Of a stretch of DNA of 64,000 bases, positions 44,013 through 47,595 are shown in pieces. A program made the translations under genes and the position numbers. A model generated the notes under the pieces. The model had not been told where the DNA came from. It searched no databases and saw only the letters and a list, made by a program, of their open reading frames with translations. Each line of letters opens with the position of its first letter. Position 1 is the first letter of the stretch. The stretch lies in the NCBI RefSeq assembly GCF_056746865.1, contig NZ_CM163382.1; one strand, 5' to 3'.

Positions 44013-44291
44013 TTACTGCTGTGACGCCTGCTGAAACAGGTTTTCCCACATATCGGTCACCAGCGCCTGGTCACGCGGCGACAATTCACCGGCACCAATG
44101 GCTTTTTCCAGACTCTGGCTAACGGTCGTATGTACCGCCTGGGCGGAGTGGTCATCACCACTTTCCAGTTCTGCGATGGCTAATGTCAGGTGGCCACGCA
44201 AATACCCACTGGCAAACAACTCATCATCACTGGCATGGTCAACCATACCGTCGATTAATGCCAGAATGCGTGATTCAAACTCCGCGATCAT
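44013..44291 (-). CDS. yfcL: Uncharacterized protein YfcL
   Basis: 92-aa acidic [29 protein letters not shown]...; last gene of the aroC-mepA-yfcA-epmC cluster. Confidence 0.85.
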
Positions 44292-44324
44292 CTTCTTTCC
44301 TCATTGTAAAACGTGGCGCTGGCT

Positions 44325-44873
44325 TTAGTTGAGCGCTTCCGGCCACGGGAACTGTTCCGCCGTAAGTTCCGGCGTGTGATAATAATTTTGTAATGCTTTA
44401 ATGAAGCGTGCCGGGCGTTCAGGAATGCCGTTTTCCAGATAATCCATCACCTGTGCATGTACCCGCCGTTGAAACACCACACGATCCGGTTCGAAGTCGC
44501 CTTCCAGATTGTCGCAACTGACGTTAAACGGATATCCCGCCGCCACACAGAACAACCAGTCCAGCGCCTGCGGCTTCACTTCAACATCTTCAAACTGGCT
44601 TTGCGTTTGGGCATCGCGTCCGTCCGGGCAATACCAGTAGCCGAAATCAACCAGCTCACGGCGCGCTTTCCCGGCAATACACCAGTGCGAAATCTCGTGG
44701 ATGGCGCTGGCATAAAAGCCATGAGCAAAGACGATTCGGTTATACGGTACTTCCGCATCAGCAGGAAGATAGATCGGTTCGTCGTCGCCTTTAATCAGAC
44801 GGGTATTAAAATCATCGGCAAAGCAGCTATTAAAAATTTCAATCAACTGCTCATAGTGGTGTGTACTGTTCAT
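44325..44873 (-). CDS. epmC: Elongation factor P hydroxylase
   Basis: 182-aa ORF MNSTHHYEQLIEIFNSCFADDFNTRLIKG... (formerly yfcM). Confidence 0.9.
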   Translation of the reverse strand: MNSTHHYEQLIEIFNSCFADDFNTRLIKGDDEPIYLPADAEVPYNRIVFAHGFYASAIHEISHWCIAGKARRELVDFGYWYCPDGRDAQTQSQFEDVEVKPQALDWLFCVAAGYPFNVSCDNLEGDFEPDRVVFQRRVHAQVMDYLENGIPERPARFIKALQNYYHTPELTAEQFPWPEALN

Positions 44874-45682
44874 TAGTTCATCCCCAACCAGTGGAGGATC
44901 TCCTGTCCGTGGCTATCGTAAAGTAATTTGGCACTCATCACCGCTGAGACAATAACAATCATCGGGCGGATCAGCTTTTGTCCTTTGCTCAACACCAGTC
45001 GTGAACCCATGCGCGCGCCGAGGAACTGCCCCACCAGCATCACGAATCCTGTCGCCCAAATCACTTTGCCACCGAGAATAAACAGCAGTAAACCGCCGAT
45101 ATTTGACGTTGCGTTGAGTAATTTGGCGTGAGCCGTGGCTTTGGCGAGGTTGAATCCGCACAGCGTAACAAAGGCCAGCGCGTAAAACGATCCCGCTGCC
45201 GGACCAAAGAAGCCGTCATAAAAACCGACGCAGCCACCGGCAATTAACGCGAAGGGTAAACCGTACATCCGGCGCTGGCGATCTTCTTCACCCAGCTTTG
45301 GCATCAGCAAGAAATAGAGGCCGATACAAATCACCAGAATGGGCAAAATCTGCCGTAAGACATCAGCCTGAACATACTGCACCAGCAATGCGCCGCTCAT
45401 TGAGCCGACAAAGGTCATGGCGATATTGAGTTTCTGATCGCTTAAACTAACCACTTTGCGGCGAATAAAGTAGATAGTGGCGGAAATAGAGCCACCGCAG
45501 GCTTGCAGTTTATTGGTTGCCAGCGCGTTAGCGGGAGACATCCCCGCCGCCATCAATGCCGGAATGGTGAGTAACCCACCGCCACCGGCAATCGAGTCGA
45601 TAAATCCCGCCAGCATGGCGACAAAAAAGAGAACTCCCAGCAACAGCGGGGAAACCATAAACAGGCTATTAAACGTTTCCAT
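44873..45682 (-). CDS. yfcA: TauE/SafE-family membrane protein
   Basis: 269-aa polytopic ORF with a Gly-rich motif (AGGGGLLTIP); 1-nt overlaps with mepA and epmC. Confidence 0.9.
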   Translation of the reverse strand: METFNSLFMVSPLLLGVLFFVAMLAGFIDSIAGGGGLLTIPALMAAGMSPANALATNKLQACGGSISATIYFIRRKVVSLSDQKLNIAMTFVGSMSGALLVQYVQADVLRQILPILVICIGLYFLLMPKLGEEDRQRRMYGLPFALIAGGCVGFYDGFFGPAAGSFYALAFVTLCGFNLAKATAHAKLLNATSNIGGLLLFILGGKVIWATGFVMLVGQFLGARMGSRLVLSKGQKLIRPMIVIVSAVMSAKLLYDSHGQEILHWLGMN

Positions 45683-46506
45683 TAGATCACGTGCTCATCC
45701 AGTAGCGCCTGGCAGGAAGGCGGCAACGGAGGCGGTGTCTTCTTCTCAGGCTTTGTTGTTCCCGGTTTTGGAGGTTCAAACCAGCTTTGCAGTTCTGCCC
45801 CGCAACCATCGCCTGGTGGCGGTAAAGGTTGATCTTCACACTCCAGACTATCGGCAGGACAACGTAATCGTACATGCATATGCGCGCGATGCTGGAACCA
45901 GGGTCGCACTTTGCGCAACCAGTCGCGATCGGTGCCCGCATCAAGGCAAAGTTGTTGTTTAATCGCCGGATTAACAAAAATGCGCGTGACGTCTTTGTCC
46001 TGGGCGGCGAGTTTGATCAAGCTGAAAATTTCTGGCTTCCACAGCGTCGGAACAACGTGTTTACCGTCGCGGGAAACTAAATCTAACGCTTGCGGGCGCA
46101 AGAGCTGCGCGGAGGTCCAGCGTGTTTTTGGCAGTTGCAGGAAGATGTCCACATCCAGTCCGGTCTGGTGGCTGGCGTGACCGCCGTTGAAACGACCACC
46201 AGCAGGCATCCCCATATCGCCAATCAGCACCGTGCCCAAGCTCAGATTGCTCACCTGGCTACTCAGACGCTGGATAAACATCACCAGATCCGGGTGTCCG
46301 AAATAGCGACGCTGATCGGTACGCATGACCTGATAATGTTCGGACTGTATCGGCAGCGTGTCAGCGCCGACGATACAGCCATTAGAAAAACTGCCTATCG
46401 ATTGTGCGCTACCCGGCACAGGTTGGGTTATTTTTTGCCACGGCGTCGCTGCCAGGCTGGCGCTACTGGCAAGCAGGGCCAGCAGCGCAATCGCGGTTTT
46501 GTTCAT
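45682..46506 (-). CDS. mepA: Penicillin-insensitive murein DD-endopeptidase
   Basis: 274-aa ORF with signal peptide [20 protein letters not shown] and LAS metallopeptidase His/Asp motifs ([12 protein letters not shown]). Confidence 0.93.
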
Positions 46507-46509
46507 TTT

Positions 46510-47595
46510 TTACCAGCGTGGAATATCAGTCTTCACATCGGCATTTTGCGCCCGCTGCCGTAACAGGTGATCCATTAAAACGATCGCCAGCATCGCTTCT
46601 GCGATCGGCACCGCACGGATCCCGACACAAGGATCGTGACGGCCTTTGGTGATCATCTCAACTTCTTCGCCAAAGCGGTTAATGGTACGCCCTGGCACGG
46701 TAATGCTGGAGGTTGGCTTCAGCGCCATATGGGCAATGATTTGCTGCCCGCTGCTGATACCGCCAAGAATGCCGCCCGCATGGTTGCTCTGGAAACCGTC
46801 TTTGGTGATTTCGTCGCGGTTCTGGCTGCCACGCAGCGCCACCACGTCAAAACCATCACCAATTTCTACGCCTTTCACCGCGTTGATGCTCATCAGCGCA
46901 TGGGCGATGTCGGCATCCAGGCGGTCAAAGACCGGCTCGCCAAGTCCGGCGGGGACGCCACTGGCAACAACGGTGACTTTCGCGCCGATGGAGTCGCCCT
47001 CTTTTTTCAGCGCGCGCATCAGTTCATCTAACGCGTCGATTTTGTCCGGGTCCGGGCAGAAAAACGGATTTTGCTCGACCTGCGACCAGTCTTTGATTTC
47101 CAGCGGAATGTCACCCATCTGGGTCAGGCAGCCGCGAATCTCAATGCCAAATTTCTCGGCGAGATATTTTTTTGCAATCGCCCCTGCCGCCACGCGCATG
47201 GCGGTTTCGCGGGCGGAAGAGCGCCCGCCGCCGCGATAATCGCGCAGACCGTATTTTTGTTCGTAGGTGTAATCGGCATGGCCTGGACGGAAAACGTCTT
47301 TAATGGCGCTGTAATCCTGAGAACGCTGGTCGGTATTTTCGATCAACAAGCCAATGCTGGTGCCAGTAGTAACACCTTCAAAAACACCGGAGAGTATTTT
47401 GACCTGATCCGGCTCGCGGCGCTGGGTGGTATAGCGCGATGTCCCAGGGCGACGACGATCAAGGTCATGTTGCAGGTCCGCTTCCGTCAGCGGAATGCCT
47501 GGCGGAACACCATCGACGATGCAGCCGAGCGCCAGCCCGTGCGATTCGCCGAAGGTGGTTACGCGAAAGAGTTGTCCAATTGTGTTTCCAGCCAT
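46510..47595 (-). CDS. aroC: Chorismate synthase
   Basis: 361-aa [36 protein letters not shown]...; the longest ORF has one extra upstream Met (47598). Confidence 0.96.

Follow-up and report, generated by a model that had tools for sequence, protein, structure and literature searches.

The locus studied here raises the question of why chorismate synthase, a ribosomal protein methyltransferase, a murein endopeptidase and the EF-P hydroxylase are encoded almost without gaps on one strand, together with a TauE/SafE family membrane protein (YfcA) and a small acidic protein (YfcL). The analysis was carried out on a stretch of 64,000 nt from contig NZ_CM163382.1 (assembly GCF_056746865.1), referred to below as the window. 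The cluster is very probably the E. coli prmB–aroC–yfcL housekeeping operon (prmB, aroC, mepA, yfcA, epmC and yfcL), whose mixture of functions has a historical origin. The cluster itself is already known, as every E. coli genome carries its annotation and recent papers name it (PMC11878033, PMC9299463).

Organisation of the cluster

The open reading frames, Pfam matches, a RefSeq record of 100% identical sequence and the K-12 layout all placed the six named genes in the following order on one strand, with smrB and mnmC as neighbours.

48728..49279, plus strand: smrB, ribosome-collision endonuclease, divergent neighbour
47630..48562, minus strand: prmB, ribosomal protein L3 Gln methyltransferase, first gene of the cluster (RefSeq annotation of identical sequence; K-12 b2330)
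46510..47595, minus strand: aroC, chorismate synthase (PF01264, 473 bits; RefSeq annotation)
45682..46506, minus strand: mepA, penicillin-insensitive murein endopeptidase, Peptidase_M74 (PF03411, 311 bits)
44873..45682, minus strand: yfcA, TauE/SafE (TSUP) family inner-membrane protein (PF01925, 166.5 bits)
44325..44873, minus strand: epmC (yfcM), EF-P Lys34 hydroxylase (PF04315, 272.7 bits; cut-off 23.8)
44292..44324, minus strand: epmC–yfcL spacer of 33 nt with the Shine-Dalgarno-like gaggaaag (read from the sequence)
44013..44291, minus strand: yfcL, acidic protein of 92 aa, last gene of the cluster (PF08891, 115 bits; cut-off 25)
41886..43892, plus strand: mnmC, tRNA mnm5s2U34 synthesis, convergent neighbour

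The products of aroC, mepA, yfcA, epmC and yfcL each scored far above the respective Pfam gathering score. The start codon of prmB is the GTG at 48562, and the 421-aa prmB frame of the mechanical ORF list was discarded as an over-extension. The first-pass annotation had described a five-gene layout from aroC to yfcL with one 3-nt gap and two 1-nt overlaps, and the window sequence confirmed it on the minus strand at the coordinates listed above: stop and start are 3 nt apart at aroC/mepA (tggTAAaaaATG; TAAaaaATG) and overlap by 1 nt at mepA/yfcA (atcTAATGg) and yfcA/epmC (aacTAATGa). The same annotation had taken the cluster to begin at aroC; this has to be corrected, since prmB precedes aroC by 34 nt on this strand.

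The K-12 MG1655 locus has identical genes in the same order and on the same strand, the same junction spacings (3 nt, 1-nt overlap, 1-nt overlap and 33 nt) and the same convergent mnmC and divergent smrB. The window differs from K-12 by allelic differences only, with identities of 95.6–98.9% per gene within the cluster and 92.4% in smrB. The cluster region was reported to be a small recombination hotspot (PMC3505186), and this range of 92.4–98.9% identity fits that report. The region was present at a coverage of at least 80% in 5424 of 5426 complete E. coli genomes.

Transcription of the cluster and its 3′ end

Nothing between the genes resembles a terminator, so the mRNA would read through all of them; the terminator scan gave 10 terminator-like matches against 6.6 ± 3.1 expected, which is no excess. 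Co-transcription from aroC to yfcL is consistent with all the evidence, from which we infer a single long transcript. A consensus scan found no minus-strand promoter, the region upstream of prmB included. Since the scan was blank even upstream of prmB, its outcome is compatible with promoters inside the cluster. An Rfam scan of the cluster returned no riboswitch, leader or sRNA, and its only matches were of the REP type and below threshold (REP-derived naRNA4 at 43.7, 34.6 and 33.6 bits against a gathering score of 59.5). Two further features bear on the ends of the mRNA.

47659..47668, minus strand: two K-12 RNA 3′ ends (Term-seq; PMC7815308 supplements, K-12 coordinates mapped to the window)
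43906..43990, minus strand: two REP-type hairpins, at about 43958–43990 and 43911–43940, followed by an mRNA 3′ end at about 43906 (fold, Rfam, Term-seq)

The REP pair is located between the convergent yfcL and mnmC, that is, the paired imperfect palindromes in a convergent intergenic region that characterise REP/BIME elements lie just downstream of yfcL, and the segment 43860–44040 folds at −71.5 kcal/mol (z = −5.5). In the supplementary lists of PMC7815308, the Term-seq 3′ end at K-12 position 2443784 corresponds to window position 43906. The only other local 3′ ends in those lists are the two that fall in the final 40 nt of prmB, at distances of 64 and 73 nt from the downstream ATG of aroC, and the lists contain none for aroC, mepA, yfcA, epmC or yfcL. 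The supplements of a SMRT-Cappable-seq study did not mention these genes, and those on operon dynamics held no usable entry for them. In a co-expression analysis, epmC, yfcA, yfcL and mepA fell into one module, and aroC and prmB were not in the subnetwork holding these four genes (PMC11356199).

An NAD-capped 5′ end inside prmB (PMC13273102) suggests an internal promoter, and the RNA 3′ ends 64–73 nt before aroC could reflect partial termination or processing between prmB and aroC. A long mRNA would thus start in the prmB–smrB divergent region (165 nt), probably with an additional start inside prmB, and would run through all genes to the REP hairpin pair after yfcL, where it may end or be trimmed back.

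Control by GcvB at the prmB–aroC spacer

One internal control point of the operon is known, the site of the sRNA GcvB before aroC, which the first-pass annotation had not included.

47598..47630, minus strand: CA-rich prmB–aroC spacer (uaaGUAAACACGCAAACACAACAAUAACGGAGCCG), GcvB R1 pairing site (sequence; duplex computation)

This CA-rich stretch is complementary to the R1 seed and covers the Shine-Dalgarno sequence of aroC. The R1 duplex of −28.4 kcal/mol at positions −35 to −3 of aroC was the best site along the whole operon mRNA and was equalled by 7 of 500 dinucleotide shuffles; at the other start regions in the operon, R1 duplexes were at chance level. The R1 seed alone was used because folds with full-length GcvB produced duplexes of unrealistic length at each junction. 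Experimentally, GcvB represses aroC and does not repress prmB (PMC9299463, PMC11878033). The yggX–mltC and rbsB–rbsK junctions, which are also GcvB targets inside operons, resemble the one at aroC in that a CA-rich stretch lies upstream of the Shine-Dalgarno sequence of the internal gene, the GU-rich R1 seed pairs with it, and the downstream gene is repressed while the upstream gene is unchanged (PMC9299463). Unlike these targets, aroC is followed by three more genes joined by very short or overlapping junctions, so that repression could spread downstream. GcvB pairing over the aroC ribosome-binding site would then lower aroC and presumably the coupled downstream genes as well, leaving prmB untouched. 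In this way, compaction of the operon may have had the side effect of placing mepA and epmC, too, under repression by an sRNA that responds to amino acids. The CA motif was found in 22 of 75 prmB–aroC spacers, 19 of them in loci L001–L029; the remaining three, at most 45 nt from the start, were in Cedecea neteri, Enterobacter sp. Ag1 and Xenorhabdus mauleonii. CA matches in two Pectobacterium loci and in Hafnia were weaker or farther away.

The action of GcvB on aroC and not on prmB, the NAD-capped 5′ end within prmB and the two RNA 3′ ends before aroC would also be explained if aroC to yfcL formed a unit of its own, transcribed mainly from a promoter inside prmB and possibly from more internal promoters, with prmB as just a neighbour. 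Terminator-like hairpins between prmB and aroC in Enterobacter, Lelliottia, Serratia and other genera, and prmB–aroC spacers of up to 315 nt in other loci, point in the same direction. However, the spacer of E. coli is just 34 nt long and has no hairpin, the GcvB study treated prmB–aroC as an intra-operonic junction (PMC9299463), and the adjacency of prmB and aroC is kept in two contigs from outside the enteric bacteria (L088 and L094, with a gap of 8 nt in L094). We therefore regard a separate aroC–yfcL unit as possible and on the unlikely side; it would shift only the start of transcription and leave the co-transcription from aroC to yfcL unaffected.

Conservation of the junctions and probable translational coupling

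A genome scan with a diverse EpmC alignment was performed, and its best 80 loci, one per species, were all from Enterobacterales. The gene order was kept across these 80 loci; 11 of them had the cluster without mepA and two without yfcA. Among loci L002–L029, which come from 28 species and have an EpmC of at least 79% identity, junctions of 5 nt or less were found at aroC/mepA in 23 of 26, at mepA/yfcA in 25 of 28 and at yfcA/epmC in 27 of 28, a retention that exceeds chance. At yfcA/epmC, such a junction never occurred in the other 48 Enterobacterales loci. The epmC and yfcL genes were adjacent in 78 of 79 Enterobacterales species loci with a median gap of 27 nt; in other genera, the shortest spacer was 9 nt and the longest 153 nt.

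From the sequence, it is reasonable to expect translational coupling at the TAATG overlaps. Ribosomes ending aroC, mepA and yfcA would reinitiate at starts that lie 3 nt away or overlap the stop codon, so that mepA, yfcA and epmC would need little ribosome-binding signal of their own. The aroC and yfcL genes have strong Shine-Dalgarno sequences. TAATG-type overlaps and weak upstream ribosome-binding signals, the latter seen here at mepA and yfcA, are shared with mixed-function housekeeping operons that use termination–reinitiation coupling. The present cluster differs from these in that its overlaps are recent, being largely confined to the loci with EpmC at least 79% identical.

Gene contexts outside Enterobacterales and history of the cluster

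Twelve single EpmC look-ups were made outside the enteric bacteria, of which one gave no match and two led to contigs that were too short. The gammaproteobacterial contig L094 carries a tight array of smrB< prmB–aroC–epmC–kinase-like–yfcL (arrowheads marking orientation) with gaps of 8, 7, −20 and 0 nt, in which the kinase-like gene overlaps the epmC stop codon by 20 nt and neither mepA nor yfcA is present. L090 contains epmC–kinase-like–yfcL ... <mnmC fabB>, and L088 contains prmB–aroC–two genes–epmC–kinase-like. In seven further contexts, epmC lies beside pdxB, xni or a DEAD-box helicase and has no E. coli partners. Neither yfcA nor mepA was ever found near epmC in the contexts examined outside Enterobacterales. 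The place between aroC and epmC is taken in Enterobacterales by mepA and yfcA, and the cluster there has no kinase-like gene.

Since L094 has the tight cluster without either gene, mepA and yfcA look like later insertions. An older arrangement may have been smrB< prmB–aroC–epmC–(kinase-like)–yfcL, into which mepA and yfcA came, with the junctions then compacted to overlaps near E. coli; the order of these steps is drawn from a few metagenomic or MAG contigs and not from a rooted phylogeny. The cluster is thus a patchwork assembled over time and not a single pathway, and history, not mechanism, accounts for the mixture of functions. The genes have no pathway in common; they are alike in being expressed at a low, steady level linked to growth.

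Functional explanations of the gene grouping

A patchwork has to be weighed against groupings that would make functional sense. Of nine adjacent genes, four act on the translation machinery by modifying or rescuing it, and the neighbourhood could be taken as an island for translation quality, in which prmB, epmC, mnmC and smrB serve one process and aroC, mepA, yfcA and fabB are passengers. The block smrB< prmB ... epmC yfcL> <mnmC was present in at least 52 of the 80 Enterobacterales loci, and L088, L090 and L094 each contain parts of it; mnmC belongs to this conserved synteny block and lies outside the transcription unit. However, the genes belong to three transcription units and are found on both strands, they have no known regulator in common, epmC stands beside unrelated genes in the seven other gammaproteobacterial contexts, and synteny at such a range may just mean common descent, which makes an island of this kind very unlikely. 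Equally hard to sustain is an envelope module of MepA and YfcA, with YfcA as a membrane transporter or lipid-carrier-related protein serving peptidoglycan metabolism. Such a module would explain the overlapping junction (a mepA/yfcA gap of 5 nt or less in 38 of 63 loci), the two proteins both work at the inner membrane or outside it, and the fold predicted for YfcA is that of UppP, the undecaprenyl-pyrophosphate phosphatase (PMC4602095). Against it, all 11 loci without mepA still keep yfcA in the cluster, Rouxiella aceris lacks yfcA and retains mepA, 4.5 kb is inserted between the two genes in Hafnia paralvei, the TSUP family has elsewhere been connected with sulfur-containing organic anions (PMC12671195), and our literature search found no phenotype joining mepA and yfcA.

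A third proposal concerns EF-P. EpmC gave a full-length match above the gathering score, and its HExxH metal motif (H59-E60-H63) was invariant in 25 diverse sequences. The enzyme catalyses the last step of EF-P beta-lysylation and is described as a non-canonical hydroxylase in the YfcM structure paper (PMC4231759). It belongs to the same modification pathway as epmA and epmB, yet within the window epmC is unlinked to epmA, epmB and efp, its conserved neighbour being yfcL. YfcL might be an accessory, regulatory or substrate-presenting partner of EpmC in Lys34 hydroxylation, perhaps together with the kinase-like protein; the 3′ portion of the cluster would then be a genuine functional module. 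The near-constant adjacency of the two genes favours this, as does the position of yfcL downstream of epmC in L090 and L094 with the kinase-like gene alone between them. The YfcL alignment shows strong conservation, with 14 positions invariant, and the protein is predicted to be a generic four-helix bundle; a small acidic bundle of this kind would be a typical protein-binding module. A read-through EpmC–YfcL fusion of 286 aa (P0014) also exists. It is, however, a single sequence in the database, explained by the loss of one stop codon, and was rejected as 'Rosetta stone' evidence; the E. coli spacer is in frame with both genes, but the shared frame is not conserved, given the varying spacer length in other genera. 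An AlphaFold2 model from a paired EpmC–GS25–YfcL alignment had a pTM of 0.59 with each domain at a pLDDT of about 90, which resembles two undocked domains and, as the model carries no inter-domain error estimate (PAE), is a weak negative. Moreover, no yfcL lies within 7–9 kb of epmC in eight other non-enteric contexts, and the abstract of the YfcM structure paper names PoxA and YfcM alone for the modification, with yfcL absent from the main text by a term search (PMC4231759). We consider a partnership of YfcL with EpmC unlikely on balance, and it is quite doubtful that YfcL and the non-enteric kinase-like protein are unrecognised parts or regulators of the final EF-P modification step. If they were, the ancient prmB–aroC–epmC–(kinase-like)–yfcL operon would encode more of the EF-P hydroxylation machinery than EpmC alone.

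YfcA and YfcL

YfcA matched PF01925 over its full length (residues 18–253; 166.5 bits against a cut-off of 32.6) and the NCBIfam model PRK10621, 'hypothetical protein' (529 bits); its sequence had no match among solved structures. Two papers on 'yfcA' in Erwinia and Neisseria were set aside, as one deals with a different gene, ycfA (6-thioguanine), and the other makes a general statement on the family. YfcL matched PF08891 over its full length above the gathering score and had no NCBIfam match and no sequence relative among solved structures. Searching for homologues of the distant L090 YfcL gave just three matches.

The first-pass annotation had suggested that guilt by association might link both proteins to EF-P modification or to cell-wall metabolism. 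For YfcA, the adjacency lends no support to a link with EF-P, since several lineages dispense with yfcA and mepA in the cluster and neither gene was seen near epmC in the contexts examined outside Enterobacterales. For YfcL, a link with EF-P is weakly supported, through the 78 of 79 loci and two non-enteric contigs. A test for a role in EF-P modification is thus better justified for yfcL than for yfcA, as yfcL is the only one of the two uncharacterised genes whose linkage to epmC outlasts the rest of the cluster.

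Gene organisation of the cluster

The window is part of an Escherichia coli chromosome. Its 4.5-kb segment 43500-48000 matched several RefSeq genomes at 100% identity, and 5424 of the 5426 complete E. coli genomes contained it at a coverage of at least 80%; only 274 of 5434 matching records showed at least 99% identity over the 4.5 kb. In the identical RefSeq records, prmB, aroC, mepA, yfcA, epmC and yfcL lie on the minus strand, flanked by a convergent mnmC on the 3' side and a divergent smrB on the 5' side. All six proteins scored well above the Pfam gathering score of their own family.

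Genes of the cluster, each defined by ORF and Pfam
47630-48562, minus strand, prmB
46510-47595, minus strand, aroC
45682-46506, minus strand, mepA
44873-45682, minus strand, yfcA
44325-44873, minus strand, epmC (EF-P Lys34 hydroxylase)
44013-44291, minus strand, yfcL

A 421-aa prmB ORF (47630-48895) was rejected as an over-extension. The true start is the GTG at 48562 (310 aa), and the 111 codons upstream are open by chance; they cross the prmB-smrB intergenic region and reach the 5' end of smrB, which is encoded on the other strand.

The first-pass annotation had described a 3-nt gap between aroC and mepA followed by two 1-nt overlaps. The junctions read directly from the sequence (aroC/mepA, tggTAAaaaATG; mepA/yfcA, atcTAATGg; yfcA/epmC, aacTAATGa) were exactly as described and the spacings were equal in K-12 MG1655, thus confirming the observation. 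Overlaps of this sort are commonplace in compact operons. A 33-nt spacer with gaggaaag separates epmC from yfcL; in E. coli these two genes share a reading frame across it (44292-44327), which is not kept in other genera. The K-12 cluster b2330-b2325 is the same cluster with allelic differences only: each gene inside it was 95.6-98.9% identical, and across 43500-49300 the divergence from K-12 was noticeable, with identities of 92.4% for smrB, 95.6% for aroC and 98.9% for yfcL. The yfcL-smrB region was called a small recombination hotspot in 2012 (PMC3505186). The cluster is nothing new in kind; the observation is real, correctly described and already known.

Beyond the cluster, an IS3-family insertion sequence (50332-51605; two overlapping ORFs with HTH_Tnp_1 and rve integrase domains) directly adjoins a yfcO-like DUF2544 fimbrial adhesin gene (49420-50313). 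In the RefSeq strain that matches best, fimbrial genes occupy this place.

The GcvB site and the transcription unit

The first-pass annotation had overlooked the first gene of the cluster, prmB, which ends 34 nt upstream of the aroC start on the same strand, as well as the GcvB site and the REP-type hairpins described below. The prmB-aroC spacer is CA-rich (GUAAACACGCAAACACAACAAUAACGGAGCCG); experiments have verified it as a target of the sRNA GcvB, whose R1 seed represses aroC and leaves prmB unchanged (PMC9299463). When the R1 segment of the K-12 gcvB sequence was paired with the operon mRNA, the best site in the entire mRNA was at aroC positions -35 to -3 (-28.4 kcal/mol), a duplex equalled by 7 of 500 dinucleotide shuffles, while pairing at the start regions of prmB, mepA, yfcA, epmC and yfcL was at chance level. 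This internal site is of the same kind as the GcvB sites at yggX-mltC and rbsB-rbsK. Of 75 spacers, 22 had the CA-rich motif upstream of aroC, and 19 of these belong to loci L001-L029 of the Enterobacterales set. It was also clear near the aroC start in Cedecea neteri, Enterobacter sp. Ag1 and Xenorhabdus mauleonii, and weaker or farther away in two Pectobacterium species and Hafnia; several other genera, such as Enterobacter, Lelliottia and Serratia, have a GC-rich hairpin in the spacer instead.

The published Term-seq tables consulted (PMC7815308 supplements) list only three 3' ends for the cluster genes. Two lie in the last 40 nt of prmB, at 47668 and 47659, at distances of 73 and 64 nt from the aroC ATG and immediately 5' of the site where GcvB pairs; processing, decay linked to an sRNA, or partial termination could account for them. 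In Enterobacter, Lelliottia and Serratia, the GC-rich hairpin occupies the equivalent position. The third end maps to 43906, just beyond the second of two REP-type hairpins between yfcL and mnmC, which fold at -71.5 kcal/mol (z = -5.5) and whose Rfam matches were below threshold. Terminator-like hairpins occurred at chance frequency (10 vs 6.6 ± 3.1 expected). One RNA-seq co-expression module has epmC, yfcA, yfcL and mepA among its hub genes (PMC11356199). On this indirect evidence, we read aroC through yfcL as co-transcribed, with most of the RNA starting either upstream of prmB or inside it. An NAD-capped 5' end within prmB (PMC13273102) counts against a simple single-promoter picture. A promoter scan found none on the minus strand, and since this held even upstream of prmB, the scan was too insensitive to exclude internal promoters.

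Conservation in Enterobacterales

One genome per species was scanned with a diverse EpmC alignment, and the best 80 loci, all from Enterobacterales, were retained; the nine E. coli proteins were placed in them by tblastn, after which the gene ends were refined. epmC and yfcL were adjacent in 78 of 79 loci (median gap, 27 nt), the sole exception being Tatumella ptyseos with a 3.6-kb insertion between them. Eleven loci (Xenorhabdus, Photorhabdus, Providencia, Proteus, Moellerella and one MAG) had no mepA in the cluster, and those of Rouxiella aceris and Arsenophonus nasoniae had no yfcA there. Very short junctions were found mainly in the loci nearest E. coli.

Junctions with a gap of 5 nt or less, in L002-L029 (EpmC at least 79% identical) and in L030-L081
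aroC/mepA: 23/26 and 20/36
mepA/yfcA: 25/28 and 13/35
yfcA/epmC: 27/28 and 0/48

In Hafnia paralvei, a 4.5-kb insertion splits mepA from yfcA, and yfcL of the tick symbiont Ca. Pantoea persica has an internal stop codon; these disruptions, like that in T. ptyseos, are lineage-specific.

Gene order outside Enterobacterales

The EpmC family is broad (678 clusters at 50% identity), and single distant members gave eleven distinct informative contexts. In seven of these, the neighbour of epmC is pdxB or a gene for a 5'-3' exonuclease or a DEAD-box helicase, and tblastn and a YfcL HMM detected no partner known from E. coli. L088, an Idiomarinaceae contig, has epmC two genes downstream of prmB-aroC. 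The gammaproteobacterial locus L094 has smrB on the opposite strand, then prmB, aroC, epmC, a kinase-like gene and yfcL, with successive gaps from prmB to yfcL of 8, 7, -20 and 0 nt. Another, L090, has epmC, the kinase-like gene, yfcL, three flgO genes, mnmC in reverse and fabB in forward orientation.

Kinase-like genes
L094, 5418-6581, directly after epmC, overlapping its stop
L090, 9717-10859, directly after epmC, overlapping its stop
L088, 8594-9736, directly after epmC, overlapping its stop
L089, 12084-13220, near epmC (fourth non-enteric lineage)

The encoded protein (ca. 380 aa) is an uncharacterised member of the NAD-kinase/diacylglycerol-kinase/PFK superfamily; its scores were far under all NCBIfam cut-offs, and the E. 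coli locus contains no equivalent.

The simplest history, whose order of steps we infer from a few contigs rather than a rooted tree, would begin with an old operon, prmB-aroC-epmC-(kinase-like)-yfcL, that was compact from the outset. Insertion of mepA and yfcA between aroC and epmC and loss of the kinase-like gene would have followed, and the junctions would last have shrunk to overlaps. The pairing of chorismate synthase with enzymes modifying the translation machinery is old and no accident of E. coli.

Association of YfcA and YfcL with EpmC

In the first-pass annotation, guilt by association was said to suggest a link of the cluster's YfcA and YfcL to EF-P modification or cell-wall metabolism. 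For YfcA, a role in EF-P modification is unsupported by adjacency, since neither yfcA nor mepA was near epmC in any of the eleven contexts outside Enterobacterales. A link between MepA and YfcA, the latter with a UppP-like fold according to a published prediction (PMC4602095), is supported only moderately; a tight junction between the two genes is common, yet either can be kept in the cluster when the other is missing. The YfcL-EpmC link fared somewhat differently: with adjacency in nearly all Enterobacterales loci and linkage in L090 and L094, its support is real but modest. What remains of value is a narrower hypothesis, in which EpmC may have YfcL as a partner and, in other gammaproteobacteria, the kinase-like protein as well.

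Conservation of YfcL is strong: 14 residues, among them those of the motif Y30-x-x-G33-H34, were invariant in 28 sequences. It had no sequence relatives among solved structures, and its high-confidence model (pLDDT 95.8) is a four-helix bundle. EpmC, a 25-residue Gly-Ser linker and YfcL were joined per species into a paired alignment, and the chain was modelled. Both domains were confident, but the pTM was 0.59, close to the value expected for domains of 182 and 92 residues that do not dock; this pTM, taken alone, is weak negative evidence on a complex. A natural EpmC-YfcL read-through protein of 286 aa (P0014) occurs once in the database. As a single sequence, it was rejected as Rosetta-stone evidence; a lost stop codon easily explains it, given that epmC and yfcL share a frame in E. 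coli by chance.
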